Below the pieces are notes generated by a model, which was not told the DNA's origin, did no database searches, and was given only the letters and a program-made list of their open reading frames with translations. This document shows positions 29 through 59,249 of a DNA stretch of 64,000 nucleotides, piece by piece. The stretch's first letter is position 1. Each line of letters begins with the position of its first letter. The translations under genes were made by a program, and so were the position numbers. Source of the DNA: a virus; IMG/VR virus record IMGVR_UViG_3300045988_183378; one strand, given 5' to 3'.

Positions 29-1234
29 TTATCTTAGATCAAATTGCTTAATTGCATGAATATTTTCTTTATCTCTTTTATGTTGTTCTTCAACTAACTT
101 ATTTAGTTGCTTATATAAATCTTTAGCAATATCCTTATTAGACTCATGCTTAAGAGCACGATTTAATGTTTCAAAATATATATAATCTTTTCTGATTTCT
201 TTTATTGATTTTTTTGTACTTTCTAATACACCTAATAGCTTTTGTAACTCATGTTCTTTTGAAATAAGTTCCTCTTCTTTTTGTTTTAACTCTGCATCTT
301 TTTTCTTTTTTTCTTTTTCAAATTCTTCTTTTTCAAGTTCAATCTTTTCAAAGTCTGCATCTACTTTTTTTATTTCTTGCTTTAGTTCTTCTTTTAATTC
401 CTGGCGTAATGAATTTTCTAAAACTAAATAATGATATTTCACATTCTGAAATTCATCTAATACTCTTTCTTCGTAAGATGGCAAAATATGCCCATTACTA
501 TCCAATTCTTTCGGGTTAACCTTTATTATTTCACTTTCATCCATTATTTTACCAAGAGTGGCTTTTTTGAATTTAGATATATCAGAATAGTTAGGATATA
601 ATTTATTTTCCAATTCTTTAGAAGCCCTTATTTCTTTTTTAGAAACACCCCTTGATAACCCAAATTGTGAACCTACTTTCTTTGCATATTCAGTCTGCAA
701 TTTTGATAAATCAGTCGGGCCATTAATAAATGATTTAGCACTTAACCTACCTTTATTATTAATAGGAACAATTAAAGCATGTAAATGAGGAGTTGATTCA
801 TCCATATGTAATACTAAATGCTTTAAATTGTTTTTACCAAAACGCTCTTCAAGCCATTTTTTATTTTCCTGACACCATTTATCTAGGTCTTTTTCTGAAA
901 TAATATCTTTCCAGTCTTTCCCATCTGCCGGATTAAAACCTAAACAAATTTCAAATGCATAAACTGCATCAGGACGAACTTTTCCCATTGTACCATTATC
1001 TTGAATTTCTTTAATTGCATTTTTTACAACAGTCTGATAGGAGTAATGGCTTCCATCAATCATTTTAGGAAGTTCAACAATATCTTTATTTAAATTTTGT
1101 TTTTCAGAATCACAATTATCTGGTACATACTCCCTTAAATTATGTTCGCCTGCAGATCTAACACTATATCTGCCATTAGCGTTTAGTGAATTTAATTTCA
1201 TGATTTTGCAAATTGTATAAGATTTATCTGACAT
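29..1234 (-). CDS. MobV/Pre-family plasmid mobilisation relaxase
   Basis: N-terminal YTICKI...EHNLRE (HxxR motif) and LHMDESTPHLHALIVP (HxDE..PHxH metal motif) typical of MobV/Pre relaxases; conserved promoter motif on minus strand at 1268-1283. Confidence 0.8.
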   Translation of the reverse strand: MSDKSYTICKIMKLNSLNANGRYSVRSAGEHNLREYVPDNCDSEKQNLNKDIVELPKMIDGSHYSYQTVVKNAIKEIQDNGTMGKVRPDAVYAFEICLGFNPADGKDWKDIISEKDLDKWCQENKKWLEERFGKNNLKHLVLHMDESTPHLHALIVPINNKGRLSAKSFINGPTDLSKLQTEYAKKVGSQFGLSRGVSKKEIRASKELENKLYPNYSDISKFKKATLGKIMDESEIIKVNPKELDSNGHILPSYEERVLDEFQNVKYHYLVLENSLRQELKEELKQEIKKVDADFEKIELEKEEFEKEKKKKDAELKQKEEELISKEHELQKLLGVLESTKKSIKEIRKDYIYFETLNRALKHESNKDIAKDLYKQLNKLVEEQHKRDKENIHAIKQFDLR

Positions 1235-1267
1235 TCAAATACCTCAACTTTCAAATAATATTAATTA

Positions 1268-1283
1268 AGATATGACAGAAAAA
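1268..1283 (-). promoter_or_regulatory. conserved CTGTCATAT-type promoter motif (minus strand) for relaxase gene
   Basis: + strand reads gatATGACAGaaaaaa = revcomp TTTTTTCTGTCATATC; about 35 bp upstream of start codon at 1234. Confidence 0.55.
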
Positions 1284-1285
1284 AT

Positions 1286-1312
1286 AATAAAGTGTATATA
1301 TACACTTATAAT
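1286..1312. promoter_or_regulatory. candidate oriT / operator palindrome between divergent promoters
   Basis: perfect 14-bp palindrome GTGTATATATACAC immediately upstream of the MobV gene, where MobV oriTs usually lie. Confidence 0.25.
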
Positions 1313-1348
1313 TAATTTATTTTTTTATTAATTTTGCAGTTTGATTTT

Positions 1349-1364
1349 TTTTTCTGTCATACAT
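1349..1364 (+). promoter_or_regulatory. conserved promoter motif TTTTTCTGTCATAc
   Basis: core CTGTCAT 1354-1360; ATG at 1401. Confidence 0.55.
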
Positions 1365-1400
1365 TATTTAGTAATAAAAAATGAAAGGAGCATATATAGT

Positions 1401-2222
1401 ATGAATATGCAGACAATAAGCCTTTTTGAAGAGGGTAATGGAGTACATATTGTTATTCCGAATACAAAAATTGAAGAAATAAAGAATCTAATGGCAGCAT
1501 TATTAATTAATAATGTTGGAGCAAATACAAAGGAGTCAGTTTTAAATGTAGAAGCTCCTGTTGTTGCAAAGGAAATCGCCCCAACACTTGAAGATATTAA
1601 TGCAGAAAAAGAAAAAATCTCGTCTAAAATTGCTGAATCAGAAATAACTGAAATGGTTGAAGAACCAGTTTTAGATGAAAAGGAATTGCCTTGGAATCAG
1701 GATGATACTTCTAATGATTCTGTTGATGACACTATTGCTGACACTATTGTTGATACCATTAATGAACCTATTAATGAAGAAGCAAATAATGATTCACAGG
1801 TATCAGAAAGTACAGCAGTTATTACAGAGGTCCCAGAATATAATGAACAGGTCGGTGATGAATTAGTTTCAAGTGAAAATGAAGATGTATCTGAAGCTGT
1901 TTACAATAATTCAAATACTGATGTATCAGACACAGTAAATGTTGACCCAGTAGAAGAATCATCAGAATCAGAATCTTCAGTTCCAGTAACATCTAATGAT
2001 AGTTCAGATGATTCTGAAATGGTATTAAAGATTTCTGCTAATAAAAATGCAGATGCAGTTATAGGCGGTCTTGAAGCCACATTAATGTACGCTAAGATTA
2101 CTCCAGAAATGAAGCTTAGCAATGATAAGACAGCAGTTATTATTAATGCAGAAAATCTTGATCAGAATACAAAGGACATTATCCTTAGAACGGCAAGAAT
2201 AACCAGAAACTTTGATATGTAA
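1401..2222 (+). CDS. highly acidic low-complexity protein (D/E/S/T/N-rich), unknown function
   Basis: ORF 1341..2222 in track; RBS aaaggag before ATG 1401; acidic repeats DSVDDTIADTIVDT; internal antisense ORFs 1675..1866, 1901..2122 are spurious. Confidence 0.5.
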   Translation: MNMQTISLFEEGNGVHIVIPNTKIEEIKNLMAALLINNVGANTKESVLNVEAPVVAKEIAPTLEDINAEKEKISSKIAESEITEMVEEPVLDEKELPWNQDDTSNDSVDDTIADTIVDTINEPINEEANNDSQVSESTAVITEVPEYNEQVGDELVSSENEDVSEAVYNNSNTDVSDTVNVDPVEESSESESSVPVTSNDSSDDSEMVLKISANKNADAVIGGLEATLMYAKITPEMKLSNDKTAVIINAENLDQNTKDIILRTARITRNFDM

Positions 2223-2244
2223 AATGAAAAGGAGAAAGTATATA

Positions 2245-2415
2245 TGAGTACAAGTGAGTATGTCGATATGTTGCTTAAAGGAAGAAAACAAATGATTTCA
2301 TATTTAGAATATCTGGAAACGCTTTCCATTTTCGATTTAGCGAAGGAATTGGAAGACAATAATATTAGAATCAATATTAACGATTCTCATATAACAGGCT
2401 GTATAACAGCTTAAG
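2245..2415 (+). CDS. small hypothetical protein (56 aa)
   Basis: RBS aaaggagaaagtatatATG; MSTSEYVDMLLKGRKQ...; followed by terminator 2421-2452. Confidence 0.3.
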
Positions 2416-2420
2416 AAAAA

Positions 2421-2452
2421 AAGGTTGGGCAATAAAGCTCAACCTTTTTTAT
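2421..2452. terminator. rho-independent terminator (bidirectional)
   Basis: aaggttgggcaataaagctcaacctttttt hairpin + T tract. Confidence 0.6.
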
Positions 2453-2577
2453 GTTTAATTATTGCAAATTCACCCGTCTTTGAATCTACAATACTAAATT
2501 AATTTTCAATCAAAAAACTACATAATATTTCCTCCTTTAATGAAACGCTATTTATATATATGACAGATTTTATTTTT

Positions 2578-2593
2578 TATGTCTGTCATATTA
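2578..2593 (+). promoter_or_regulatory. conserved promoter motif
   Basis: core CTGTCAT 2583-2589; ATG 2674; inverted copy ATGACAG at 2560-2566 forms palindrome. Confidence 0.5.
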
Positions 2594-2673
2594 TTTTTAG
2601 ATGTTTTGTGTAATAAAAACTTCAATATTATTTTAGAAAGGAAGTTGCTAATATAGCAACAAGGTAGTAATTT

Positions 2674-3390
2674 ATGAACAATAAAAATAACCCAATTAAT
2701 TCATATAATATGTTGAGTAAACTGCCGGATATCAGACCAGTTCATTCTCTTATTATTATTTTTAATCTTGCACTTATTATAGGTGGACTTGTTTGCGAAA
2801 TTATTTTTTACGGAACAGAAAATTTTGCAGGTGTAATTGCCAGCGGAATAATTGCGGGTTCAAATTTATTATGTTTTTTGATTCTTAAAAATGTTATTAA
2901 TTGGTACCCTCAGGCTAGATTTGAAATATATAATGAATATATTGATTTTAGCTATTTTGTACCTGGAATTGACAAAATGACAGATTATAAAGTTGAACAA
3001 ATTGACCATATTAAAGAAACATTTGATGGTTTAATAGTATCAGGTATTATAAAACATAAACCTGCAGCAAAACTTAATTATGAAGCACTTGATAAATACA
3101 AATTTTATATTGCTAATAAGGAATTAAAAAACAAAATATTATTAGAATTGCAGGAATTCAAAAAAAGGCAATATATTAATGAGTTAAATAATTGTTTAGC
3201 TGATAAACCAGAAGAAAAAAATAATGATTCAAATAATATAGATATAGTTACTGAATCTACTGAAATGCCTGATTTAGAACAAAATATAAAAATGGTTAAA
3301 GACGAAATGGCAAAAAAACTAAACGATTCTGATAGGATGGATATTACAATTGATAAACCAAATATAAAAGTAACTACTTCAACAAAATAA
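2674..3390 (+). CDS. membrane protein (2 N-terminal TM helices), unknown function
   Basis: ORF track; hydrophobic segments LIIIFNLALIIGGLV and IASGIIAGSNLLCFLIL; K/E-rich C-terminus. Confidence 0.5.
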   Translation: MNNKNNPINSYNMLSKLPDIRPVHSLIIIFNLALIIGGLVCEIIFYGTENFAGVIASGIIAGSNLLCFLILKNVINWYPQARFEIYNEYIDFSYFVPGIDKMTDYKVEQIDHIKETFDGLIVSGIIKHKPAAKLNYEALDKYKFYIANKELKNKILLELQEFKKRQYINELNNCLADKPEEKNNDSNNIDIVTESTEMPDLEQNIKMVKDEMAKKLNDSDRMDITIDKPNIKVTTSTK

Positions 3391-3393
3391 TAA

Positions 3394-3448
3394 TTATCGC
3401 AATTAAGCAAAAAACTCCATCCAACAATAGTCGGTTGTGAGTAGTTCA
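3394..3448 (+). repeat. 57-bp hairpin repeat element, copy 1
   Basis: TTATCGCAATTAAGCAAAAAACTCCATCCaACAATAGTCGGTTGTGAGTAGTTCA; followed by terminator. Confidence 0.7.
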
Positions 3449-3455
3449 GATAGAA

Positions 3456-3502
3456 AAAGACTTAGTATGTATATAATATATATCATACTAAGTCTTTTTA
3501 TT
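3456..3502. terminator. rho-independent terminator (bidirectional)
   Basis: aagacttagtatg...catactaagtcttttt long perfect hairpin flanked by A/T tracts. Confidence 0.65.
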
Positions 3503-3900
3503 TATTTATAAATTTTATTCCATTCTGAATTTTTACAGATTAAATCTATGTCATCATCAGACATATTCAACAACATTTTTATTTCTTTTTTACCGTTTTC
3601 CGTAAAACACATAGCAGCTAAATATTGATCAAAAGACATCCATAATTTATGTTTCTTTAGTTTAGAAATAATAAATAATTTTGCATATAATTTATCCTTA
3701 ATATTATTAGGCATTATATTAACAAATACATTGTTTTTTATTGCTAAATCGGTCATTACATTTATATTAACCACATCGTTATGAGTATCTTTCCAATTAA
3801 AATGATTTTTTATATATTTGATAGACTCATTCTTTCCAACAAAAAACATTTTTCCATTTCCAAATTCAATTGAAAAAATATTAAGTTTGTTCATATTCAT
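3502..3900 (-). CDS. hypothetical protein (132 aa), minus strand
   Basis: ORF track; one of only two minus-strand genes; ends at bidirectional terminator. Confidence 0.45.
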   Translation of the reverse strand: MNMNKLNIFSIEFGNGKMFFVGKNESIKYIKNHFNWKDTHNDVVNINVMTDLAIKNNVFVNIMPNNIKDKLYAKLFIISKLKKHKLWMSFDQYLAAMCFTENGKKEIKMLLNMSDDDIDLICKNSEWNKIYK

Positions 3901-3976
3901 TTTACTCTCCTTAATTTTACAATATTAAATAATATACTATATATAAAATGAATTTACAAATTTATATCCAATTTTA

Positions 3977-3992
3977 TTTTTCTGACATATAT
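3977..3992 (+). promoter_or_regulatory. conserved promoter motif variant TTTTTCTGaCATAT
   Basis: core CTGACAT 3982-3988; ATG 4027. Confidence 0.45.
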
Positions 3993-4026
3993 ATTACATC
4001 AATTAATTAAAGGAGGCGTATTCAAA

Positions 4027-4227
4027 ATGATAGAACATATTGTTTTTAATGTGCAGGCAAATAAAACTTTATCTGATACTAATGAATCATTCTATGGATG
4101 CTGGACAAAAGGACATACATATGAATGTATTGCATTTGGCGATTTCGTATCAGTAAGAAATGATTCTGGGATGTATACACAATTTACAAAAGAAGCTTTC
4201 GAAAAATTTAAAGATAAAATTGCGTAA
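4027..4227 (+). CDS. small hypothetical protein (66 aa), first gene of PARP operon
   Basis: RBS aaaggaggcgtattcaaaATG; ORF track. Confidence 0.5.
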   Translation: MIEHIVFNVQANKTLSDTNESFYGCWTKGHTYECIAFGDFVSVRNDSGMYTQFTKEAFEKFKDKIA

Positions 4228-4243
4228 TATATAAGGAGGATTT

Positions 4244-5530
4244 ATGAAACAGGCAGATATAAATACAATACCAAATCATGAATATTTGGAACTTAATTAT
4301 GTTGCAGAAACAGCTACAGGTAAAGGTAATAATCAACAGATTATTATGCAGGTTAATGCCAATAATAAGAATGTTTTTGATGTTACTGAAGGTAGAATTG
4401 GAATCAGGATAGGAAGGAACAGGCCAAGGACATATTCACTTCCTATGACTAATTGGGATTCTTTTTATTTGTCTAAGGTAAATAGAGGTTGGTTGCTTAC
4501 AAAGACTCAAAAAATGGAGAAAAAAAAGATTACAAAAAAAGGTTTAAGTTTTAATGGCGGCACATATGCACAGACTGGAATTTTCTCTGTTGATTCTATT
4601 ATAACAAAACTGCTTTCATACGCTAATAAGGTTATTTCAGATAATTATTCAACTTCAGTTGAAGATATTTCAGATGAGATGCTTGAATATGGTAATTCGA
4701 TTTTGACTGAATTAGCTAAGAACCATGATTCTATGTCAATTGCAGAGTTTAATAATAAATTAAAAGTATTATATGCTGCAATTCCTAGAAGAATGGATAA
4801 TTTATCTAAACATTTGGCTAAAAGAAAGATTGAATTTGTGGATATCATTGACAAAGAGCAGGAACTGTTTGATATTGTGTATTCTCAGGTAAGATCTAAT
4901 AGTAATTTAGCTAAATATGACACTATGCCAACAGTTCTTCAGGCCTATGGACTTGAATGGAGACCTGTATCTGACGAAGAAGAGACTAAAATCAAGAAGT
5001 TTATGGGAGAAAATGCAAAGCAATATAAAAATGCTTGGAGAATCATTAATAAAAAGACCGAAAAGGCTTTCAATGAATATTGTGCTAAAGAAAATTTAAG
5101 TGATGAAAATAATGGAATATCTCATTTATTTCATGGTTCAAGATCAGAAAACTTCTGGTCCATTATAACTAATGGTTTAACAATAAATCCAGTTGGAGTT
5201 GTAACTAATGGAAAGATGTTTGGATTAGGTACATATTTTGCTAATAAGGCAAAAAAATCGATGGGATATACTTCAAGCTCCGGTTCTTATTGGACTCATG
5301 GTAGTGAAGCAATTGGATATTTAGGCATTTTCAAAGTGGCTACTGGTAAAACATATGATGTAACATCTGCTGAAAGTGATTTAACTTATAATGTTTTACA
5401 ACAGAGATGCCCTGGCGCTCATTGTACTTTTGCTCATGCGGGCCATAGTTTATGTAATGATGAAATTATTGTATATCAGGATCAGCAAAGTACTATAGAA
5501 TATTTTGTTGAATTTACAGCAGCTCAGTAA
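4244..5530 (+). CDS. PARP1-like ADP-ribosyltransferase: WGR domain + helical domain + PARP catalytic domain (H-Y-E triad)
   Basis: WGR-like segment EGRIGIRIGRNRPRTYSLPMTNWDSFYLSKVNRGW; catalytic motifs LFHGSRSENFWSIITNGL (H-G-S), GLGTYFANKAKKSMGY (Y-F-A), NDEIIVYQ (catalytic E) colinear with PARP1 LLWHGSR...GKGIYFAD...YNEYIVY. Confidence 0.75.
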   Translation: MKQADINTIPNHEYLELNYVAETATGKGNNQQIIMQVNANNKNVFDVTEGRIGIRIGRNRPRTYSLPMTNWDSFYLSKVNRGWLLTKTQKMEKKKITKKGLSFNGGTYAQTGIFSVDSIITKLLSYANKVISDNYSTSVEDISDEMLEYGNSILTELAKNHDSMSIAEFNNKLKVLYAAIPRRMDNLSKHLAKRKIEFVDIIDKEQELFDIVYSQVRSNSNLAKYDTMPTVLQAYGLEWRPVSDEEETKIKKFMGENAKQYKNAWRIINKKTEKAFNEYCAKENLSDENNGISHLFHGSRSENFWSIITNGLTINPVGVVTNGKMFGLGTYFANKAKKSMGYTSSSGSYWTHGSEAIGYLGIFKVATGKTYDVTSAESDLTYNVLQQRCPGAHCTFAHAGHSLCNDEIIVYQDQQSTIEYFVEFTAAQ

Positions 5531-5542
5531 GGAGGAAATTTT

Positions 5543-5686
5543 ATGAAAAAGAAAAATATATATGAATTAAAACGAGCAGGTATATGCTGCGAAGAAGAAA
5601 TGAAAAAAGTATATAGATTTTCTCCATTGCCTCCTGAGGCAATCACTTTTATAAATAATTTACATCAGAAAAAAATTAATAAATAA
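5543..5686 (+). CDS. small hypothetical protein (47 aa)
   Basis: RBS taaggaggaaattttATG; MKKKNIYELKRAGICCEEE...; followed by terminator. Confidence 0.3.
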   Translation: MKKKNIYELKRAGICCEEEMKKVYRFSPLPPEAITFINNLHQKKINK

Positions 5687-5696
5687 TGATTGTGTA

Positions 5697-5733
5697 AAGC
5701 GTAGAATTAATTATTCTACGCTTTATTTATTTT
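5697..5733 (+). terminator. rho-independent terminator
   Basis: aaagcgtagaattaattattctacgcttt + T tract. Confidence 0.6.
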
Positions 5734-5748
5734 AATTCTGTCATATTA
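5733..5748 (+). promoter_or_regulatory. conserved promoter motif (drives short noncoding unit)
   Basis: core CTGTCAT 5738-5744; no ORF before terminator-like structure at 5795-5848. Confidence 0.45.
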
Positions 5749-5749
5749 T

Positions 5750-5848
5750 TATTAGCTAAAAATAAAGGAGCTAATTATATTTTTTATAAAAAGGGTTCAG
5801 CGGTAACGGTAAGCATGATCTTACTTAGTCACGTTGAACTCTTTTTTT
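5750..5848 (+). ncRNA. candidate small RNA (promoter-to-U-tract unit, about 100 nt)
   Basis: GC-richer structured segment gttcagcggtaacggtaagcatgatcttacttagtcacgttgaac followed by tctttttttaa; no start codon after the aaaggag. Confidence 0.25.
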
Positions 5849-5851
5849 AAT

Positions 5852-5867
5852 ATTATCTGTCATATAT
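5852..5867 (+). promoter_or_regulatory. conserved promoter motif
   Basis: core CTGTCAT 5857-5863; ATG 5905. Confidence 0.55.
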
Positions 5868-5904
5868 ATATTAATATAACTTTTTTTGACTATAAGGAGG
5901 ACCT

Positions 5905-7119
5905 ATGGATAGAGAACAAGAAAGATTAAATACATCACTTTTATGTGGTTGGTCAGTAATAACAATAACACTATTAGGCATTTATTTTGGTGAAATGTTA
6001 AAACATGCTATATCACCACCATATTTTGCAATATTTGCTATATTAATCAGTATCCCGAATTTAACAGGGTGGTTGGTTTTTATTTATAATAAAAACTGGC
6101 TATTTTTAAAATATTTTGTAACATTCTCGTTTTTAATAATGTATACATTTACCTTATTTACAGGAAATACTGTTTTATGTTTTACTTATATATTTCCAAT
6201 TATCCTGCTTTTAATTTTATATTATGATCCAACTTTAATTATAGTAACCGGGTTATTTTCGACAGTGTTGAATATTACAGCAATATTTATTAAGACATAT
6301 AATAAAATTGATAAATCAGGTGGCAAAGACATGGAGATACAACTTGCAATAATTATTTTATGCTTTGCTGCAGCATATATTGTTTCAAAGTTTTATAAAA
6401 GAAATACAGACCTAAATTTACAAAATACACAAACAATAATAAATCAAATAGAACAAATTAATAAAATGTCTCTCCAAACAATTACAACTATAGCAAATAT
6501 TATCGATGCCAGAGATAATTACACCAAAGGCCATTCAACCAGAGTGGCAGATTATACAGCCTTATTAGCATATAAATTAGGAATGAATAAAAATGAGATT
6601 GAAGATATTCATTCAATAGCACTATTGCATGATATAGGGAAACTAGGAATCCCGGATAGCATATTAAATAAACCAGGGAAATTAACAAATGAAGAGTACC
6701 AAGTAATGAAGAACCACACAGTAATAGGCGGAAATATCTTAAAAGATATGTCAATGCTTAAGGACATTGATTTGGGAGCAAAATATCATCATGAAAGATA
6801 TGATGGAAAAGGATACCCAGATGGCTTAAAGGGAGAACAAATACCTTATATTGCAAGAATTATTTCTGTAGCAGATGCCTTTGACGCAATGACAAGTGAC
6901 AGAGTATATAGGAAACATTTAGATTCAATAATTGTAATCAATGAGCTTGAAAAAGGTAAAAGTACTCAATTTGATCCGGTAATTGCAGATGCTATGTTAA
7001 GTTTAATTAAATCTGAGAAAATCAAAATGAATTATAATGCTTTACTTGAAGAAATTGATTTAGCAGAAAATTTGAATGAATTGTATCCGGAGAAAGAATT
7101 TTATGATGCAACAGAGTAA
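5905..7119 (+). CDS. membrane-anchored HD-GYP domain phosphodiesterase (c-di-GMP hydrolase-type)
   Basis: 5-6 N-terminal TM helices; HD motif ALLHDIGK, HHERYDGKGYP (GYP motif), ISVADAFDAMTSDRVYR. Confidence 0.8.
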   Translation: MDREQERLNTSLLCGWSVITITLLGIYFGEMLKHAISPPYFAIFAILISIPNLTGWLVFIYNKNWLFLKYFVTFSFLIMYTFTLFTGNTVLCFTYIFPIILLLILYYDPTLIIVTGLFSTVLNITAIFIKTYNKIDKSGGKDMEIQLAIIILCFAAAYIVSKFYKRNTDLNLQNTQTIINQIEQINKMSLQTITTIANIIDARDNYTKGHSTRVADYTALLAYKLGMNKNEIEDIHSIALLHDIGKLGIPDSILNKPGKLTNEEYQVMKNHTVIGGNILKDMSMLKDIDLGAKYHHERYDGKGYPDGLKGEQIPYIARIISVADAFDAMTSDRVYRKHLDSIIVINELEKGKSTQFDPVIADAMLSLIKSEKIKMNYNALLEEIDLAENLNELYPEKEFYDATE

Positions 7120-7258: not shown

Positions 7259-8392
7259 ATGAAAACAATAGAAAAAATTAAAATACAAGATAATACAATA
7301 GATCATACAGAAAAACAAACCAGTTTATACGCATATTTGTATAATAAATTTCAAAATAAAATAATGGCTATTAACCTTCTTATAATAATCACAATATTTG
7401 TTTTTGAATTATTATTTATACCAATACATATAATAATAGAAAAACAAACAATAAATATATTATCTTATATTATATTGAATGTATTTACACCTACTACATC
7501 TAATTTAATAATATGGTTTACCGGTAGACAAATTATAAGAAAATATCAAGATAATATTAAACCAGAAATATATGAAGCCATGCCTTTGTATATTTTAACT
7601 TTAATTATAGTGGTTTCAATTATCATTCATTATAATTATCCGGTATTATATACATTAATAGCCTGCCCAATTTTTATGTGTATTGTATATGGTAGTAACA
7701 AGGTTAATTGGCAATTATTTTTGATAAGTCAATTTGAAATTATTACAATTTCATTATCATCAATCTCTGAATTAAATAAGTTACCATCAAATTATTTAAT
7801 ATATATGTTTTTATCATGTATCATAACAATATTTGCATATATTTATTCGAGACTTGTTATTAAATATGAGAAAGAAAAAGAACTTAAACTGGTTTTATCT
7901 GAAAATAGAAATGCACAATTACTAAAAGAAATTTCACAAGATGGATTAACTCGATTAGATAATTATATGTCTCTTTTTAATACAACAAAGAAATGGATAT
8001 CATATAAGAAAAAACTTTATTTTTGTATAATAGATATAGATGATTTTAAATCAGTTAACGATACATATGGACATGAATTTGGAAATACTGTTTTAATTAA
8101 TTTAGCTAAGGAACTTCAAAATATTAACCAATCAAATATTTTTGTCGCCAGATATGGAGGCGAAGAATTCGGAATATTATTTGCAGATTATGAATATACT
8201 GAGGCATATAATATAATTAACGATATCAGAATTAAATTCAACAATATTAAATATGAGAATATTCCGCAGCAATTTACTTTCTCTGGAGGAATAACAGAAT
8301 ATAAGAAAAATAATACCGTTCACGATTTATTTGATGCAGCAGATAAAAATTTGTATAAAGCTAAAAGAACAGGCAAAAATAAAATTATGTAA
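7259..8392 (+). CDS. membrane-anchored GGDEF-domain diguanylate cyclase
   Basis: 6 N-terminal TM helices; DGLTRLDN, IDIDDFKSVNDTYGHEFGN, RYGGEEFGILF (GGEEF active site), DAADKNLYKAKRTGKN; no own promoter motif or clear RBS so probably co-transcribed with HD-GYP gene. Confidence 0.8.
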   Translation: MKTIEKIKIQDNTIDHTEKQTSLYAYLYNKFQNKIMAINLLIIITIFVFELLFIPIHIIIEKQTINILSYIILNVFTPTTSNLIIWFTGRQIIRKYQDNIKPEIYEAMPLYILTLIIVVSIIIHYNYPVLYTLIACPIFMCIVYGSNKVNWQLFLISQFEIITISLSSISELNKLPSNYLIYMFLSCIITIFAYIYSRLVIKYEKEKELKLVLSENRNAQLLKEISQDGLTRLDNYMSLFNTTKKWISYKKKLYFCIIDIDDFKSVNDTYGHEFGNTVLINLAKELQNINQSNIFVARYGGEEFGILFADYEYTEAYNIINDIRIKFNNIKYENIPQQFTFSGGITEYKKNNTVHDLFDAADKNLYKAKRTGKNKIM

Positions 8393-8623: not shown

Positions 8624-8639
8624 ATTCTCTGTCATATTT
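8624..8639 (+). promoter_or_regulatory. conserved promoter motif
   Basis: core CTGTCAT 8629-8635; ATG 8671. Confidence 0.55.
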
Positions 8640-8670: not shown

Positions 8671-11004
8671 ATGAGTTCTAAAAAACAACCACTTTATAAT
8701 GATGATAAAAATATTCCACTAAAAAAACAAAAAAATCATCTTTTAACCATATTTAAAATTTTTTTATTGATTATTATGATAGTCATATTATTATCTTTAA
8801 TATCATTATCAGTATTTTATATCAAATTTTATAGTAAATTCAAATTGGCACAGGAGAATGCGTATGAGTCATTACAAAATATGAACCAAGATGAATTTAA
8901 TAAAGAACTGAATACATACTTTTATTATGATGACGGTACATTAATGGCAGCTAATATTAACGGCTCTTATGAATATGTTAATATCAGCGATGTTAGTGAT
9001 TATATAATACAAGGATATATTGCTGTGGAAGATAAGAATTTCTATATTCATAAAGGTATTGATGCTAAAGCATTGTTACGAGCTTCTTTGGCTTATATAA
9101 AGAATAAAGGAAAAATAACTCAGGGCGGCAGTACAATTACACAACAGGTTGTAAAAAATATTGTTATAAAAAATTCAGACAAAACAATAGATAGAAAACT
9201 TACTGAAATAATAGCATCACTTGAAATGGAAAAATCATATTCTAAAGAACAAATACTTGAAATGTATTTAAACTCTAATTTCTATGGCAGCAATTGTTAT
9301 GGAATTCAGGCAGCTTGTAAATATTATTTTGGATGTGATGTATCTGATGTAACAATATCTCAAGCTGCAATGTTAATAGGCATTTCAAATGCCCCTACAA
9401 AATATAATCCTGAAACAAATTATGAATTAGCAATATGTAAAAGAAATCAAGTCCTTAATACAATGTATAATCAGAAAATAATTACAGAAAAACAATACAA
9501 TGAAGCATTAGAAGATCCTCTTGATTTAATTTTATATAAAGAAACATCTGATTTACCAACATCTTATGAATTTTCATATACACTTAAATGTTCTATTGAA
9601 TATCTTATGGAAATGAATGGATTTAATTTTAAATACCTTTTTGATTCTTCAGAAGATGAGCAAGATTATATTAATCAATATAATAGAATATACTCTAAGT
9701 ACAAAGAAGAAATATTAACTGGAGGATACAGGATATATACTTCAATAGATAAAGATAAGCAGCTTGAGCTATTACAAATTTCAAAAAATGTTTTATCACA
9801 ATATGATAACAGCTTATCCGAGGATGGGCGGCATCTTCTTCAAACATCATCCATGTGTATTGATAATGAAACTGGATATGTTAGAGCAATTATAGGTGGA
9901 CAAGAAGATAATGAATATATAAATAGAGCATATCAATCTCCTAGACAACCAGGCTCTTCCATTAAACCAATATTAGATTATGCTCCGGCTTTTGATATTT
10001 TAGACTATCATCCATCATCTATGATTTTGGATTCTCCACTTGAGGGTAAATACCAGCCTAAAAATCATGATGGATATTACAGAGGCAATATTTCAGTAAG
10101 AACAGCTTTATTACAATCAGTCAATACAACGGCTGTTAAAACATTAATGAATGTTGGAATAAACAATTGTTTAGAGTATTTAAATAAAATGCACTTTTAT
10201 AATATTTCATATGAAGATAATAATAATGCTGCAATTGCCATAGGTGGTTTTACAAATGGTGTAACAGTAGAAAACATGACTAAAGCATACAATGTATTAG
10301 CTAATAATGGTAAATACAATAATAATACATGCATCAAACATATGTTGCGTCAAAATGAAGAAATATATCAAAATAAAGAAGATATTCAAGTATATAAAAA
10401 AGGCACCGCTTATATGATGACAGATTGTTTAATTTCAAATTTTACAGAAGGATACGTCAAAAATTATCAAATAGATAATCAAATTTGTGCAGGGAAAACT
10501 GGAACAACGAATGATAACAAGGACTCTTGGCTATGTGCATATACACCATATTACACAACATGTATATGGACCGGATATGATATTCCTAAAAATTTTGATA
10601 ATGGTTCAGCAATATGTGGAGAAATATGGAAGCAGTTTAATGAATATTTACACCAGAATTTAGATAATAAGGAATTTGAGAAACCTGAAACTATTTATGA
10701 GCATTATATTGACTGGGAAGGGAAAAAATGTAATTATAATTCTGGTAAAAAAGATTTTTTTCAAATCGATTTTCCTAATTATGAAAATGCCAGTTTTTGT
10801 TACAAAAAAGCATATGATGCTTTAAAAAAAGCTGAGAATACTAATATTTCAGATTATAAAACTGCTAATACTGTTATAAAAAGTCTTGATGATATTATTA
10901 TCGATAAGAACGCATTAACTGATCAACAAGAAATTGATGCTATAAATAAATACTGGGATGAAATATATAATAATATTTTAATAAAAAGACAACAGTTTGG
11001 ATAA
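8671..11004 (+). CDS. class A penicillin-binding protein (GT51 transglycosylase + transpeptidase) with N-terminal TM anchor
   Basis: GT51 motifs [28 protein letters not shown]; transpeptidase RQPGSSIKP (SxxK), KTGTT; about 150-aa C-terminal extension. Confidence 0.8.
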
Positions 11005-11377: not shown

Positions 11378-11481
11378 ATAATTTTGAAAATTAGAACTAT
11401 TTGTTTAGCTACCTTAAAATGTCTTTATAGACTTTTTAGGGTAGCTTTTTTGTTCGCACATTGCGAAGAAAGGGCTGCACT

Positions 11482-12129
11482 ATGGCAGAATTAAATGAAA
11501 TTATGTCAGACAAAAAGGCTGGCACATATAAAAAGGATTTTTTTAATGTAGCATCATATATCGAAAAATTTTATGATGCAGAAGAATATCTTTTCAATTT
11601 CGAAGCTAATGATTTGGTTGAAACCAGATCAGGAGCAAATGATTATGTTGAGGAACATACTCCTCATGTGCTACAACATATAGCTCCAGAAATTTCATGG
11701 GCTATAAATAAAATTTCTGAAGCTACAAAAGAAAAGAAAGGAATTAAAGGCGCTAAGAATGGTACCTTTCATCCTACATGGTTTGATTCATTAGAAAGTG
11801 CATCTGAAGCATTAGAGAGAGTTTTAATTGCTTCAAATAATACCTCTATTATTTCTAAAATTCAGAACTGGTGTGAGGATAGAGATATTTATTACAACGA
11901 CAGAAGGCATAATCGTTTAGTTATAGATATAGTATCTAATACGGTTATAGGAAAAGGAATTGTAAAAGGTACAAATTATGATATTCCTTTTGACTGTCAT
12001 GGACTTCATATTGTTTTAGAATATACAATTTCTAAAAAAGATGGAGAATTTGCAGTCTATGATATGTATCCATATTTCACAGAAGAGGATTGGAGCATAA
12101 TTAAAAAAGCTAAAAATAAAAAATCTTAA
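11482..12129 (+). CDS. hypothetical protein
   Basis: track ORF 11461..12129 (TTG); first ATG at 11482; terminator downstream 12131-12168. Confidence 0.45.
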   Translation: MAELNEIMSDKKAGTYKKDFFNVASYIEKFYDAEEYLFNFEANDLVETRSGANDYVEEHTPHVLQHIAPEISWAINKISEATKEKKGIKGAKNGTFHPTWFDSLESASEALERVLIASNNTSIISKIQNWCEDRDIYYNDRRHNRLVIDIVSNTVIGKGIVKGTNYDIPFDCHGLHIVLEYTISKKDGEFAVYDMYPYFTEEDWSIIKKAKNKKS

Positions 12130-13744: not shown

Positions 13745-14113
13745 ATGGTAACAACAGCAACAGTGTCAACAAATGCAATAAATAAGACAAATAAGACAAT
13801 AAAGGTAGGACTCAAAAGATGTCCATTTTGTAGAAAGTGGGACTCAATGAGTATTATCCCTATTAAAACTAATGGCTTTAAGATTACTTGCGATTACGCA
13901 AAAGGAGGCTGTGGAGCCAGCGGTGGAATGGGTAAGACTAAAGATGAAGCAATAAAAATGTGGAATCTAAGAGTGCCTATTGATCATTTACGTCATGATG
14001 TTTCTGAAAAATCATATCATAATAGTTTAATGAATTGTGAAGTAATTCCTTCTACGGAAATATATGATGCATTAAATGATGAACAAGAAAAATATTTAGA
14101 AATAAAGATTTAA
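13745..14113 (+). CDS. Lar-family-like zinc-ribbon protein (possible restriction alleviation)
   Basis: CPFCRKW...CDYAKGGCGASG...EAIKMWN resembles Lar family CPFCG...C..C...WN pattern; N-terminal extension unusual. Confidence 0.4.
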   Translation: MVTTATVSTNAINKTNKTIKVGLKRCPFCRKWDSMSIIPIKTNGFKITCDYAKGGCGASGGMGKTKDEAIKMWNLRVPIDHLRHDVSEKSYHNSLMNCEVIPSTEIYDALNDEQEKYLEIKI

Positions 14114-17203: not shown

Positions 17204-19131
17204 ATGATTGATTATAAAGCTGTTTTAAATGAGCAGCAATATGAAGCTGCTACAACAATTGATGGGCCATTACTTATTATTGCAGGAGCAGGTACAGGTA
17301 AAACAGCAACATTAATACATAGAGTTGCATATATGATAGAAAATGGAATTCCACCTCAGAGTATTCTGCTTTTAACATTCACTAATAAGGCAGCTAATGA
17401 AATGAGTGAAAGAGCTGCACAAATATTAGATGAAAGATGCAATAAAATTACTGCATGTACATATCATTCTTTTTGTGCCAAAATGTTAAGGATATATGGG
17501 GTTTTAGTTGGGCTAAGAAAAAACTTTACTATACTTTCTGAGAGCGATGTTGTAAATACAATTAAACTTCTTATAGCTGAAAATCCAGAAAAATATAAAA
17601 TAAAAAGCGGCTTCTCTGTATCTGAAATCGCCAAAATATTTAGCATGTCAATTAATCAAGATTTACCATTAGAAACAGTTATTGGGCTTAAAGATAGTAA
17701 CTTGGCATTTTTATCATATATATATATACTGAGCTGTTTGAAAAATACAAAAATTATAAAAAGGAAAATAATCTGGTAGATTATGATGATTTGTTAATAT
17801 ACTTTAACGAATTATTAGATAATAAAGCTGTCAGAAATCAAATTTCAAGCAGTTATAAATATATTATGGTAGATGAATATCAAGATACCAATAATCTGCA
17901 GGAAAGAATTATATTTAAAATGGCTCAGAAATATGAGAATCTAGCAGTTGTAGGAGATGATTATCAAAGTATTTATGCTTTCAGAGGAAGTAATGTGTCT
18001 AACTTTATTAATTTCCCTAAAAAGCATAAAAATTGCAAAGTAATAAAACTTGAAAAGAATTATCGTTCCACTACAGAAATACTTAATTTAGCAAATTCAG
18101 TTATGAACCGGTATGCTAATTTTGGATATCCTAAGAATATGACAAGTAATAATAAACAAGGAACTATGCCTGAAGTCATAAGCCTTCAAAATCAGGCAGA
18201 AGAGGCAACCTGCATTTTAAATAGAATAATTAAGCTGCATAATAAAAATGTCCCATATAAGGATATAGCAGTGCTAGAGAAGTATTCCAGAGATTCAGCT
18301 ATATTGGAAACATTGTTAATGAATAATAATATTCCGTACAAAAAAGTTGGAGGACCTAAATTTTTTGAAAGAGAAGCTGTCCAGGATATCTTAGCCTATT
18401 TAAGAGTTATCGCTAATCCAATTGACACATTAGCGTGGTTTAGAATATTGCAATTAATATATGGAATTGGTGATACATATGCAAGAAATATTGTAGAACA
18501 TGTAACAGAAAAAGATTTCTTGCTGCATGAATATCCAACAAAAAAATTTCATCAAGACATGGAAAAATTGCATGATACAATTTTGAATTTTAGAATCAAG
18601 TATTATAGGAACCAGTTAAGTATCCCTGATCTTGTGCTAAAAATAAATGAATATTATATTGAACAAAGAAAAGAATTATTGGAAAATGCTAAATTAAATG
18701 AAGAGCAAAAAATAAATGAACAGGATAAATTAGATGATGATAAAAATATTTTAAAACAGTTATATGAATTATGTACAGTGTTTAATAATCACAAATCTTT
18801 AAACGCTTTTCTTGATAATTTAACTTTAGGGATGGATAACAAAGATGAAGAAGAGGGCTTGGTTATTTCAACAGTACATTCAGCAAAAGGTTTGGAATGG
18901 GAATATGTATTTGTACTTGATTGTGTTACAGGAGTTTACCCAGGATTTAATGCTATGAGCATGGCTGAAGAAGAAAGACAGGAAAATCTAAGAGTATTCT
19001 ATGTTGCTATTACAAGAGCAAAAAAACAAATGTACTTATGTGTCCCAGAAATATATCATGAACGTAAAGTGTATCTTACCCCATATTTAAAACATTTAAA
19101 TAATCATATGTCATTTTCGTATAATTACTGA
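17204..19131 (+). CDS. UvrD/PcrA-like SF1 helicase, reading frame broken within an (AT)6 tract at 17716-17728
   Basis: track ORFs 17204..17779 (GAGTGKTATL Walker A, LTFTNKAANEM) and 17791..19131 (VDYDDLL, MVDEYQDTN, VVGDDYQSIYAFRG, STVHSAKGLEW, FYVAITRAKK); frame ≡1 already open from ~17692 reads ...LFEKYKNYKKENNLVDYDDLL; removing one AT unit restores a single ORF. Confidence 0.7.
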
Positions 19132-21366: not shown

Positions 21367-21382
21367 TTTTTCTGTCATATAT
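21367..21382 (+). promoter_or_regulatory. conserved promoter motif
   Basis: core 21372-21378; ATG 21417. Confidence 0.55.
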
Positions 21383-24372: not shown

Positions 24373-25467
24373 ATGGGAAGACCACCAAAGAATATTAATA
24401 CCGAAACACAGGGTAACGAATCAATTTCAAATGACAAATTAAAAGCACTTGATGCTGCAATGTTAGAAATTGAAAAGACCTATGGCAAAGGTTCTGTCTT
24501 TAAATTAGGTGATACAAAGAAATTAAATGTTGAAACATTTTCATCAGGTTCCTTAGCACTGGATCAGGCTTTAGGCGGAGGAATTCCAAAAGGAAGAATT
24601 ATAGAAGTATTTGGCCCGGAATCAAGTGGTAAAACAACTTTAACCTTGCATATGATTGCAGAAACACAAAAAAATGGTGGAATTGCCGGGTTTATTGATG
24701 CTGAACATGCATTAGACCCTGTTTATGCTTCTAATTTAGGTGTGGATATAAATAATTTATATATTTCACAGCCAGACAGCGGAGAACAGGCTTTAGAAAT
24801 AGCAGAAACAATGGTAAGATCCGGAGCTTTAGATTTGGTTGTAATAGATTCTGTAGCAGCTCTTGTACCTAAGGCAGAAATTGATGGAGAAATGGGGGAT
24901 TCACATGTTGGATTACAAGCAAGACTTATGTCGCAGGCTTTAAGGAAACTGACTCCCGTTGTAAGTAAAAGTAATTGTTCAGTTATTTTTATTAATCAGT
25001 TAAGAGAAAAGGTTGGAATTATGTTTGGCAACCCAGAAACAACAACTGGGGGACGAGCATTAAAGTTTTACTCTTCTGTAAGAATTGATGTACGAAGAAT
25101 TGAGTCAATTAAGGAAGGCGGAGCTATTGTTGCTAACAGAACAAAAGCAAAGGTAGTTAAAAATAAAATAGCTCCTCCATTTAAGGAGGCAACATTTGAA
25201 ATTTCATTTGGTAAAGGTATAGACAAGAATGGCGAAATAATTGATTTAGCTGTTGAACATGGATTTATCAATAAAACTGGAGCTTGGTTTACAGATGCAG
25301 AAGATTCTAGTTTAAGATGGCAGGGCAGAGCAAATGCTAAATTATATATAGAAGAGCACTCGGAATATAAAGATAAATTAGAAACTTTAATCAGAAAAAG
25401 ACTTAAGGGAGAAGACGACATTTCACCCTTTATTGAAAAAAATATAAAAAATGTAATTGATGAGTAA
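24373..25467 (+). CDS. recA: RecA recombinase
   Basis: [18 protein letters not shown], Walker [98 protein letters not shown]. Confidence 0.92.
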
Positions 25468-32977: not shown

Positions 32978-32993
32978 TTTTTCTGTCATATTT
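32978..32993 (+). promoter_or_regulatory. conserved promoter motif
   Basis: core 32983-32989; ATG 33024. Confidence 0.55.
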
Positions 32994-37228: not shown

Positions 37229-38125
37229 ATGAGTGTTTTATCAAATCTGTTAGCGGCTTTTAAACCAGGAAAGCAGTTTACACTAAAAGAAGCATATGCT
37301 GTTAATCCCTCATATCCAAAAGAGTCAGTTAGAGCAAGAATTTATGAAAATTTAGGTAAAGAATTTAAGAAACTATCAAAAGGACTATATGTAACAGATG
37401 ATGTAGTTCTTATTGAAGGCGATGGAAGAGATTTATCTGTTTTTGAAAGTGAATCTATGGATTGCATAATTACTGATCATCCATGGGATGATAAGAAATC
37501 TAATAATGGTGGAACAAGACATTTAGCTCAGTATGATTGTTTTAAATATACCTTATCAGATTTTATGGAAAAAGCTAGGGTATTAAAGGAAGGCAGTTTC
37601 TTAGTAGAAATTTTACCTGCAGAAAATGAAAATAATTTTGATTATTTGTATGAGATTAAGAAGATGGCAGAACAGGCAGGGTTTAAGTATTATGCAAAAG
37701 TTGCATGGAAAAAAGGTACATTTGTAAGTAATACAGGCAGAAAAGCTAAAAATACAGAAGACATAATGATTTTTAGTAAAGGTAAGCCAAGAGCATTAAG
37801 ACCAGATAAGCAAAGAGGCGTTATAAATGGAGTACCTACCAGATTTATGAGTGGAGCTAATGGGATGCTGCCTACTGAATTTAATGTGCAGGCCATTCCC
37901 AATAAATTAAAGAATGTCCAGACAGAAAAACCAGTTGCTTTGTTTGAACAATTGTTAGAATATTTTACTTTACCTGGTGAATTAGTTTTAGATCAATTTG
38001 CGGGTAGTGGTGTTACAGGAGAAGCATGTCTTAATAAAAAAAGGAAATGTATTTTAATTGAAAAATGTAAGGAGCATGTAGTAAGTATAATAAACCGGTT
38101 AAATTTGCAATGTGCAGTAATTTAG
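37229..38125 (+). CDS. orphan beta-class DNA methyltransferase (N6-adenine/N4-cytosine)
   Basis: motif IV DHPW (DPPY-like) upstream of motif I LDQFAGSGVTG (FxGxG): beta-class order; no adjacent restriction endonuclease. Confidence 0.7.
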   Translation: MSVLSNLLAAFKPGKQFTLKEAYAVNPSYPKESVRARIYENLGKEFKKLSKGLYVTDDVVLIEGDGRDLSVFESESMDCIITDHPWDDKKSNNGGTRHLAQYDCFKYTLSDFMEKARVLKEGSFLVEILPAENENNFDYLYEIKKMAEQAGFKYYAKVAWKKGTFVSNTGRKAKNTEDIMIFSKGKPRALRPDKQRGVINGVPTRFMSGANGMLPTEFNVQAIPNKLKNVQTEKPVALFEQLLEYFTLPGELVLDQFAGSGVTGEACLNKKRKCILIEKCKEHVVSIINRLNLQCAVI

Positions 38126-42145: not shown

Positions 42146-42161
42146 TTTTTCTGTCATATGT
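42146..42161 (+). promoter_or_regulatory. conserved promoter motif
   Basis: core 42151-42157; ATG 42200. Confidence 0.55.
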
Positions 42162-43330: not shown

Positions 43331-43346
43331 TTTTTCTGTCATATTT
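43331..43346 (+). promoter_or_regulatory. conserved promoter motif
   Basis: core 43336-43342; ATG 43382. Confidence 0.55.
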
Positions 43347-59233: not shown

Positions 59234-59249
59234 TTTTTCTGTCATATTA
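59234..59249 (+). promoter_or_regulatory. conserved promoter motif (CTGTCATATTAAAAATATA)
   Basis: core 59239-59245; ATG 59283. Confidence 0.55.

Follow-up and report, generated by a model that had tools for sequence, protein, structure and literature searches.

What does an enzyme built like human PARP1 do on a mobile element of the human gut, and what kind of element carries it? The question is raised by a stretch of DNA of 64,000 nucleotides (nt), IMG/VR virus record IMGVR_UViG_3300045988_183378, the whole of which is called the window here. An initial annotation, made from the letters alone, had described positions 4027-5686 as a three-gene operon for a phage-borne PARP1-like enzyme. The open reading frame (ORF) at 4244-5530 indeed encodes a three-domain, PARP1-3-like ADP-ribosyltransferase, composed of a WGR-type sensor, a helical regulatory domain and an ADP-ribosyltransferase (ART) domain. 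The carrier, on the other hand, is a giant (about 320-400 kb) human-gut conjugative element rather than a demonstrable phage. We tentatively propose, with a confidence that stays just short of even, that the enzyme would be activated by DNA and would be the product of an accessory gene that serves the element's own DNA transactions or its establishment.

A PARP1-3-like enzyme with a re-tooled sensor

The gene and the parts of its product are as follows.

4244-5530, plus strand: PARP1-3-like ADP-ribosyltransferase, 428 aa, AGGAGG at 4234; identified by PF00644, PHROG 23333, fold and triad
4274-4513, plus strand: WGR-type domain, aa 11-90
4571-4948, plus strand: helical regulatory (HD-like) domain, aa 110-235
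4769-4792, plus strand: conserved LYAAIPRR motif of the HD-like domain
4949-5527, plus strand: ART catalytic domain, aa 236-428, delimited by Pfam, PDB match and alignment
5132-5134, plus strand: catalytic H297, in HGS (H297-S299, 5132-5140)
5234-5236, plus strand: catalytic Y331, in YFA (Y331-A333, 5234-5242)
5255-5269, plus strand: NAD+-site residues K338, S339 and Y342, aligned with K903, S904 and Y907 of PARP1
5462-5464, plus strand: catalytic E407, in EIIVY (E407-Y411, 5462-5476)

The catalytic domain matches the Pfam PARP family PF00644 (E 1.3e-18; 67.7 bits against a cut-off of 26.7), as do all 38 aligned relatives. The best PDB sequence matches of the ORF are catalytic fragments of PARP1 (E 4e-9), and PHROG 23333 matches over the full length, residues 20-424 of 428 (E 3e-31). 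The triad stands in register with H862, Y896 and E988 of PARP1. The motifs that had been read as HGS, Y-F-A and E-I-V-Y are present as HGS, YFA and EIIVY and align to HGS, YFA and NEYIVY of PARP1. H297, Y331 and E407, together with K338, S339 and Y342, are invariant in the 38 relatives, which share 47-84% identity, and among 93 proteins from the collected loci H297 and Y331 occur in 93 and E407 in 92, the remaining one having a gap. Careful alignment thus kept the His and the Glu on which the initial annotation had built. Assignment to the R-S-E toxin type was rejected because the alignment is of the H-Y-E type, and a decayed or inactive enzyme was rejected because no catalytic or NAD+-site residue varies over this range of identity. 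The H-Y-E triad is needed for polymer synthesis but is not enough for it, and does not alone prove poly-ADP-ribosylation.

An AlphaFold2 model calculated from the family alignment (predicted local distance difference test, pLDDT, 87.4; predicted template modelling score, pTM, 0.83) has the PARP fold, as the initial annotation would have it. The top Foldseek matches are multi-domain chains, DNA-bound PARP2 (7aeo_A) and PARP1 WGR-CAT (7s6h, 4dqy_C), over ~480 columns with E ~1e-18 and a template modelling (TM) score of 0.62 for 4dqy_C. At E <= 1e-3 the model matches 380 PDB chains, and the best 50 of these 380 are all PARP1-4. In the model the WGR-type domain consists of five strands and one helix (residues 14-87, pLDDT 78-96), and the regulatory domain of five to six helices colinear with the HD of PARP1 (helices 114-134, 144-163, 166-179, 184-190 and 195-224 in a bundle of residues 114-234). 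Order of domains, ART fold, triad and NAD+-site residues are therefore those of human PARP1/2/3, which are also the best sequence and fold matches in the PDB. The identity to them is only 16-20%, and zinc fingers, BRCT and N-terminal extension are lacking.

A search with hidden Markov models (HMMs) bore the initial annotation out for the catalytic domain only: the Pfam models WGR (PF05406) and PARP_reg (PF02877) matched none of 38 family members, even at E <= 1. Because the Pfam models detect neither domain, WGR and HD were established by profile, hhalign and fold. The family profile is colinear with the WGR-HD-ART order of PARP1 over profile positions 26-370 (E 5e-19) and sets TEGRIG over SWGRVG of PARP1 and LYAAIPRR over FYTLIPHD. 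In an hhalign comparison, the N-termini of the clade to which the window protein belongs (the window clade) matched those of a phage-type sister clade (NNNKYY...YGRIG...KGY) with a probability of 97.4% and E 1.4e-11. A phmmer search of the PDB with a phage-clade N-terminus alone gave no meaningful match, a single-sequence search being too weak for WGR. Both the WGR-like module and the helical region are genuine, although their divergence puts them beyond the reach of Pfam.

The divergence has a focus in the WGR motif itself, which here reads T-E49-G50-R51-I-G, with Glu49 aligned to W589 of PARP1. None of the 38 window-clade members has an aromatic residue at this first position; most have E, others D, N, M, I or K. 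Among the 93 loci proteins, position 49 is Y, F or W in 82, all of them phage-type (mostly YGR, flanked by NNNKYY and KGY), and non-aromatic (E, M or N) in the 11 window-clade proteins. G50 is kept in 90/93 and R51 in 92/93, and R51 is also nearly invariant in the alignment of the 38 relatives, so that the Gly and Arg of the human WGR are both retained. Since position 49 is non-aromatic while the N-termini are homologous by hhalign and R51 is kept, the sensor domain is present but re-tooled. In published bacterial PARPs this residue is Y, W or F (PMC5966428), unlike the E, D or N of the window clade.

WGR domains may also occur apart from PARPs. Supplementary file 3 of a survey of leading regions of conjugative elements (PMC11541004) lists, as family 233, a 219-member 'WGR domain-containing' family among the large families. 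Proteins of this kind, with WGR only, could form a plasmid establishment factor of their own and are worth a comparison with the N-terminus of the PARP.

The PARP gene is the second of three ORFs in a compact unit, bounded by these features.

3980-3990, plus strand: promoter-like motif copy TTCTGACATAT (1 mismatch), 37 nt 5' of the orf1 start codon
4027-4227, plus strand: orf1, first gene of the unit, 66 aa, AGGAGG at 4011
5543-5686, plus strand: orf3, third gene of the unit, a 47-aa micro-protein with the motifs YEL-RAGI and PLPPE-I-F, AGGAGG at 5530
5694-5726, plus strand: intrinsic-terminator-like hairpin (14-pair stem and T-run), 8 nt past the orf3 stop, which closes the unit

The spacers are 16 nt between orf1 and PARP and 12 nt between PARP and orf3. 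Upstream of orf1, a 126-nt AT-rich gap that contains the motif copy at 3980-3990 extends to a divergent 132-aa ORF (3502-3900, minus strand). Terminator-like sites number five within 1200-6000, against 1.1 expected. Given the tight spacers, one AGGAGG per ORF, the terminator and the upstream motif, 'three-gene operon' is a sound anatomical description, and both small flanking ORFs exist on the plus strand where the initial annotation had placed them. It is not a family trait, however. The orf1 product is 47% identical over 62 aa (E 7e-13) to that of the ORF which, in the related element L010, immediately precedes a PARP of 77% identity, and is missing upstream of the PARP in L103 and all more distant relatives. 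For orf3, a 46-aa ORF downstream of the PARP in L010 is 68% identical (E 8e-16), and a 56-aa ORF after the PARP in L103 has both orf3 motifs (tblastn E 8e-4). Both small ORFs are missing in the distant clade members L006/L014, L009, L011, L013 and L016, and the PARPs of distant members are often lone genes amid oppositely oriented small ORFs. A family-wide three-gene system was accordingly rejected: small ORFs accompany the PARP in the closest lineages only, orf3 in three including the window and orf1 in two. Neither small ORF matched anything in Pfam, PHROG or PADLOC. The orf3 product and, less certainly, that of orf1 would be accessory or regulatory partners of the PARP.

A giant conjugative element as carrier

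The view that the enzyme is phage-borne is not supported by the surroundings of its gene. About 3 kb away lies a relaxase gene, which diverges from the block that contains the PARP and adjoins a candidate region for an origin of transfer (oriT).

29-1234, minus strand: Mob_Pre (MOBV-type) relaxase gene (PF01076, E 3.5e-30)
1235-1401, no strand assigned: relaxase-proximal intergenic region of 167 nt with a palindrome and divergent motif copies, a putative oriT region
1290-1307: perfect 9+9 palindrome AAGTGTATA/TATACACTT, candidate oriT/nic hairpin

The palindrome is flanked by divergent copies of the motif TTCTGTCATAT at 1270-1280 (minus strand) and 1352-1362 (plus strand). The first plus-strand ORF probably starts at the ATG at 1402, which is preceded by an AAAGGAG site, and not at the TTG at 1341. 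The PARP gene is the sixth ORF after this intergenic region, 2.9 kb in, and is co-oriented with the next ~55 kb of replication and recombination genes.

The same DNA was found on two larger human-gut contigs, L117 (322 kb) and L115 (400 kb), and an identical PARP protein is encoded on contigs of 302 and 351 kb. The order on L117 and L115 is PrgI (E 1.6e-20), a VirB4-like ATPase, a 1,295-aa protein, a VirD4/TraG coupling protein, a 109-aa ORF, a NERD protein, a 277-aa ORF, Mob_Pre (minus strand), four small ORFs, orf1-PARP-orf3, an HD-GYP protein and a GGDEF protein. The coupling protein matches T4SS-DNA_transf, TrwB and TraG-D_C, and the ATPase on L117 matches TraG P-loop and CagE_TrbE_VirB. 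Both of these large contigs thus carry, colinear with the PARP operon, a relaxase, a coupling protein, a VirB4-family ATPase and a further component of a type IV secretion system (T4SS). The synteny of type IV coupling protein, NERD, one further gene and Mob_Pre on the minus strand is common to L001, L115, L117 and L010; in the last of these the relaxase is 55% identical, and the PARP likewise follows it.

The sole link of the element to viruses is a 95 kb IMG/VR fragment (L021, PARP 100% identical) together with some related contigs; the 95 kb IMG/VR contig IMGVR_UViG_3300029581_000240, filed as viral, includes the window DNA. No capsid, portal, terminase or tail family is among the matches listed for the window ORFs (Pfam and PHROGs, with 25 of 35 PHROG families listed in one scan) and for the 10-kb flanks (precomputed Pfam), a search that covers ~100 kb of the at least 320 kb of the element. 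A walk downstream in search of virion genes met small hypothetical ORFs, TnpB, YqeY and leucine-rich-repeat proteins only. The coupling protein has no relative in IMG/VR. Megablast of window positions 1-25000 against phage and plasmid collections returned nothing useful, the element not being in them, and scans of the whole window gave no tRNA and no Rfam match at the gathering threshold. We have here either a giant conjugative element that was filed as a virus by mistake, or else an unusual hybrid.

The motif that flanks the palindrome recurs throughout the window. With at most one mismatch, TTCTGTCATAT is found 41 times where 3.9 copies are expected, and no shuffle reached 41; 34 of the 41 are on the plus strand, almost all 35-75 nt 5' of start codons. 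Example sites are given here.

1270-1280 (minus strand), 1352-1362, 3980-3990, 5736-5746, 5855-5865, 8627-8637: copies of TTCTGTCATAT
21370-21380, 32981-32991, 42149-42159, 43334-43344, 59237-59247: further copies of TTCTGTCATAT

It looks like an element-specific promoter or operator, and the element itself encodes a sigma-70-family protein (56976-58004). Like most other genes of the element, the PARP operon has a copy upstream.

The rest of the window is almost wholly on the plus strand and, besides the genes below, encodes UvrD-type helicases, RecJ, a primase-type zinc ribbon, TnpB and a 5'-3' exonuclease.

5905-7119, plus strand: membrane-anchored HD-GYP-type (HD_5) phosphodiesterase in its own transcription unit (PF13487, E 1.2e-38)
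7259-8392: membrane GGDEF cyclase, after the HD-GYP gene
8671-11004: bifunctional PBP1A-type transglycosylase/transpeptidase
11461-12129: CdiA-CT RNase-A-like ORF, a weak match (25 bits against a cut-off of 27)
13745-14113, plus strand: Lar-like restriction-alleviation ORF, a borderline match (28.4 bits against a cut-off of 28.6)
17204-17779 and 17791-19131: UvrD-type helicase in two ORFs on the same strand, 11 nt apart
24373-25467: bacterial-type RecA (E 2.5e-137)
31224-32798: flotillin/SPFH protein
37229-38125, plus strand: orphan N6/N4 methylase
44645-46486, 47376-48134 and 53854-55539: DNA polymerase III (PolIII) alpha in three ORFs, with ~0.9 and 5.7 kb of other ORFs between them

In L103 (74% PARP identity) and L104 (65%), too, the PARP has an HD_5 gene after it, so that the adjacency is seen in three lineages including the window. 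In the split helicase the first ORF covers N-domain profile positions 1-153 and the second 191-270 plus UvrD_C; this may be a pseudogene with a frameshift or stop codon, an assembly error or a genuine split. An intact UvrD is found near the PARP in L103 and L104. The three pieces of PolIII alpha comprise PHP and NTPase 1-102, then NTPase 103-260 and the start of the finger, then finger, HHH and OB. HNH endonuclease families also occur in this region. The gene could be split, or invaded by introns or inteins. The PBP1A-type enzyme, RecA and flotillin are unusual cargo for a mobile element.

Relatives, erasers and known systems

The initial annotation called bacterial and viral homologues rare, which turned out to be overstated. 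A word-indexed search of a 90% cluster database gave 1,606 relatives at E <= 1e-3, almost all metagenomic, ~420 aa long and annotated with PF00644 only. An exhaustive search of 1.84 billion cluster representatives (50% identity) gave 456 at E <= 1e-30, 868 at <= 1e-10 and 1,842 at <= 1e-3. GTDB genomes with relatives are metagenome-assembled genomes of Blautia and Lachnospiraceae, a Clostridiaceae isolate, Paenibacillus medicaginis and Clostridium tagluense. Annotated homologues are present in cultured phages (Cellulophaga phage phi4:1 and jumbo phages of Xanthomonas, Stenotrophomonas and Klebsiella) and in 21 plasmids of 100 kb to 1.2 Mb, among them pCY360 of Butyrivibrio proteoclasticus; in tblastn the identity to the plasmid-borne examples is 24-40%, usually over the C-terminal 30-70%. 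The literature holds surveys as well: PARPs were reported from four dsDNA viruses and 28 bacteria (PMC4245714) and noted in jumbo phages (PMC7824862), and a compilation of 72 bacterial sequences includes a Clostridiales clade in which Pfam defines no PARP_reg although the region models as helical (PMC5966428). The window protein therefore adds to an already described family of bacterial and mobile-element PARPs, and its existence would not surprise a specialist. The new details are its variant features, namely Glu in place of the WGR aromatic, no eraser in cis and a putative leading-region position.

Bacterial PARPs such as those of Herpetosiphon aurantiacus (A9B244), Clostridioides difficile CD160 (T3DQ72) and B. 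proteoclasticus (E0S444, on pCY360) are alike in size (~400-450 aa), in their WGR, helical and PARP_cat parts and in a sporadic distribution, often on megaplasmids (21/21 matching plasmid records are of 100 kb to 1.2 Mb). 'Clostridiales clade 1.2' of Garcia-Saura et al. 2018 resembles the window protein in its helical model without a Pfam-defined PARP_reg (PMC5966428). The Herpetosiphon enzyme requires DNA and makes poly(ADP-ribose), and the C. difficile CD160 enzyme is highly active in vitro (PMC8120803, PMC5966428). These two are the only ones with in vitro activity, and target and function are listed as unknown (PMC8120803); in the literature searched we found no later functional work on bacterial or phage PARPs. 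The published PARPs with shown activity have a cognate PARG, whereas the window PARP has none within 64 kb.

The absence of a PARG or macrodomain partner, which the initial annotation had noted for the flanking ORFs, holds for the whole window. Tblastn with the bacterial-type PARG of L009 found no PARG in the 64 kb, an HMM found no TARG1-like macrodomain in the six frames of the window or in window-clade loci, and no macrodomain, PARG or ARH family is among the Pfam matches listed for the scanned window ORFs. In L009 itself (50% identity, GCA_024712465.1), a serpin gene (L009:11399-12754) comes directly after the PARP, and a PARG_cat_microb gene (L009:16881-17669) lies 5.6 kb downstream. By tblastn of the window and the loci, this is the only PARG near any of ~100 homologues.

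The phage-type sister clade is organised differently. IMG/VR holds 168 relatives of 35-40% identity over residues ~20-424, with identical catalytic motifs. Clustering of neighbours in 92 loci revealed a 145-aa gene directly upstream of the PARP on the same strand. Pfam is silent on its product, which is a homologue of TARG1/OARD1 (E 6e-30 to 4j5q_A, human TARG1). A TARG1-like HMM was positive in 77 of 103 sequences (fetched loci and window), and the homologue stands directly upstream of the PARP on the same strand in at least 60 of 80 phage-type IMG/VR loci. A DNA ligase lies within 6 kb of the PARP in 42 of these 80, NAD-dependent LigA with BRCT in 27 and an ATP-dependent ligase in 15, and immediately upstream of the macrodomain-PARP pair in ~20 loci. 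Examples from these loci (L022-L100) are as follows.

L044:9526-9960: macrodomain
L059:7550-9523: LigA
L057:8195-9520: ATP-dependent ligase

PolIII alpha, primase, PD-(D/E)XK and ERCC4 nucleases, NrdD, ThyX and guanylate kinase surround them. The phage-type loci amount to a ligase-eraser-writer module inside replication gene clusters, of which we found no description in the literature searched. In Cellulophaga phage phi4:1 the PARP is followed by one unrelated gene and then a DNA ligase; the gene between them, gp030, was considered as a TARG1-like macrodomain and rejected.

PARPs of phages (phi4:1 gp031/PHROG 23333, jumbo and huge phages, the 168 IMG/VR relatives) are thus alike in full-length match and catalytic motifs. 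They have the canonical NNNKYY...YGR(I/V)G...KGY with a TARG1-like gene upstream and often a ligase, whereas the window clade has EGR, no eraser and different neighbours and is here borne by a conjugative carrier. ADP-ribosylation at the expense of NAD+ by mobile elements in conflicts is also known from T4 Alt/ModA/ModB, AcrIF11 and DarT-DarG, but these lack a WGR-HD gate, and Alt and Mod are of the R-S-E type. DarT modifies DNA and is distantly related to PARPs; its partner is a TARG1-like macrodomain (PMC8385414), and this obligatory adjacent antitoxin, DarG, has no counterpart at the window PARP.

Function and rival explanations

If the enzyme works like PARP1-3 and the two bacterial PARPs that have been assayed, the helical domain would block the NAD+ site in the resting state. 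The WGR-type domain would bind a nick, an end or a junction of single and double strand and relieve the block, and the H297-Y331-E407 site would then move ADP-ribose, as mono- or polymer, onto the enzyme itself, nearby proteins or phosphorylated DNA ends. This could mark or shield nicks and ends, or recruit or block processing enzymes, during establishment of the transferred strand in the recipient or during replication and recombination. The enzyme would probably act neither as a secreted nor as a constitutive toxin. Retention of the HD-like domain with its IPR motif and near invariance of R51 favour a regulated enzyme over a free toxin. Action on the element's own DNA is suggested by the position of the gene as sixth ORF near the relaxase, in the orientation of ~55 kb of replication and recombination genes, and we take the recurrence of UvrD-type helicases beside window-clade PARPs as a further link to DNA transactions. 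By association, the linkage to ligase and TARG1 points the family to work on nicks and ends: phosphorylated DNA ends are ADP-ribosylated by PARP1-3, which can block access of phosphatases, and TARG1 or PARG reverse the modification (PMC8385414).

Several observations weigh against this proposal. The non-aromatic WGR position and the silence of Pfam WGR mean that DNA-end recognition may differ or be lost, and the association with ligase and TARG1 is a trait of relatives at only 35-40% identity, while the window PARP, unlike the phage clade, lacks an eraser in cis. Its position in the leading region is putative, derived from the position of the relaxase and the orientation of the genes. Three related elements (L113, L118 and L121, with coupling proteins 60-66% identical) have no PARP after the relaxase, so that the gene is accessory and dispensable for transfer. 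Finally, distant clade members stand among Bro-N, DUF3849, LPD1, YodL, serpin, Fic and orphan methylases, and such varied accessory neighbourhoods fit anti-defence or defence cargo as well as a DNA-maintenance enzyme.

The last point leads to a rival that we regard as possible, if rather doubtful: an anti-defence effector that is made early in the recipient and ADP-ribosylates restriction enzymes, CRISPR effectors, RecBCD/AddAB-type nucleases or repair proteins, the WGR domain only localising it to the incoming DNA. T4 Alt/ModB and AcrIF11, which is borne by plasmids and phages, would be its models. Relaxase genes usually adjoin oriT and belong to the lagging region, and the first ~30 ORFs of leading regions, those of MOBV elements included, are enriched in establishment and anti-defence genes (PMC11541004). 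A gene 2.9 kb from the relaxase region and co-oriented with those downstream would suit such an anti-defence island, and so would its variability among related elements. The borderline Lar-like ORF and the orphan methylase at 37229-38125 are on the same strand, clade members lie amid DUF3849, DUF3846/YodL, LPD1/LPD28, Bro-N and orphan methylases, the kind of genes typically met in establishment regions, and ART anti-defence enzymes have precedent (PMC12421852). However, the known anti-defence ARTs are small, single-domain proteins without a WGR-HD module, and the retained autoinhibitory domain argues for activity gated by nucleic acid over simple target modification. In addition, text and supplementary tables of PMC11541004 contain no PARP or ADP-ribosyl family for leading regions, and the sister clade is linked to ligase and replication genes, not to anti-defence genes.

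Quite unlikely, in our estimate, is that the PARP is defence or exclusion cargo, a one-protein sensor and effector in which foreign or damaged DNA triggers NAD+ consumption or PARylation and abortive infection against phages or competing elements. The layout of sensor, gate and NAD+-consuming effector does resemble the logic of NAD+-depleting defence; defence genes are common on mobile elements, the distribution is patchy and accessory, and a NERD nuclease-family gene and the below-cut-off CdiA-CT RNase-A-like ORF (11461-12129) lie nearby. But the PARP and nine neighbours gave no match to 5,027 PADLOC-DB 2.0 models at E <= 1e-3, the promoter motif upstream of the operon is the element-wide one that housekeeping-type genes also have, and 168 relatives in large phage-type contigs, within replication modules and paired with erasers, are unexpected for an anti-phage suicide module.

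The initial annotation had thought of a phage enzyme with host proteins or DNA ends as its targets, which it would modify in lytic infection. Bona fide phages do encode homologues, IMG/VR holds the 95 kb fragment with the identical PARP and further related contigs, and phage-like traits of the window are the PolIII alpha in three ORFs with HNH genes nearby, the own sigma factor, RecA, RecJ and the repeated promoter motif. We find this hardly probable, as PrgI, the VirB4-like ATPase, the coupling protein and the relaxase share contigs with the PARP, the virion families named above are missing from the matches listed for the scanned window and flank ORFs, and the coupling protein is without relatives in IMG/VR.

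Very improbable is an addiction system that stabilises the element, with the PARP as a DarT-like growth-arresting toxin and the orf1 or orf3 product as antitoxin: the tight unit with 12-16 nt spacers, the retention of orf3 with the PARP in three lineages and of orf1 in two, and the well-known ART toxins with adjacent neutralisers (PMC8385414) speak for it, but most members (L006/L014, L009, L011, L013 and L016 among them) lack both small ORFs and many stand alone on the strand opposite to their neighbours, the enzyme has an autoinhibitory domain of its own, and no macrodomain or NADAR-type antitoxin was found at the locus.

Returning to an enzyme that acts on the element's own DNA, it is tempting to speculate further that mobile elements of prokaryotes operate on their own DNA a eukaryote-like PARP system for signalling or capping, in two forms, the phage module of ligase, TARG1 and WGR-HD-PARP and an eraser-less conjugative variant. 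In the latter, a re-tooled sensor (E for W/Y) and expression from the leading region would lead to ADP-ribosylation of the ends of the incoming strand, or of their proteins, against host nucleases and defences, with the 47-aa orf3 product as an HPF1-like accessory factor. Taken as a whole we consider this unlikely. If it were true, a PARP of bacteria or mobile elements would for the first time have a physiological role, and this would point to mobile elements, rather than to transfer from eukaryote to bacterium, as the reservoir of the PARP1-3 architecture.

If the protein is merely another regulated ART, it is a correctly annotated but ordinary accessory gene product. What the comparison provides is a large gut-associated clade on mobile elements, in one widespread element just past the relaxase, and a phage sister clade wired to a TARG1-type eraser and DNA ligases, which points to nick and end metabolism. 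The pair of ligase-TARG1-PARP in phages and an eraser-less PARP by a relaxase makes the biology of these enzymes more testable, and the natural sensor variant with Glu for the aromatic residue allows a direct comparison of ligand preference. If the enzyme acts at DNA entry or repair, ADP-ribosylation would join the plasmid establishment toolkit, and this would also bear on the origin of eukaryotic PARP1-3.

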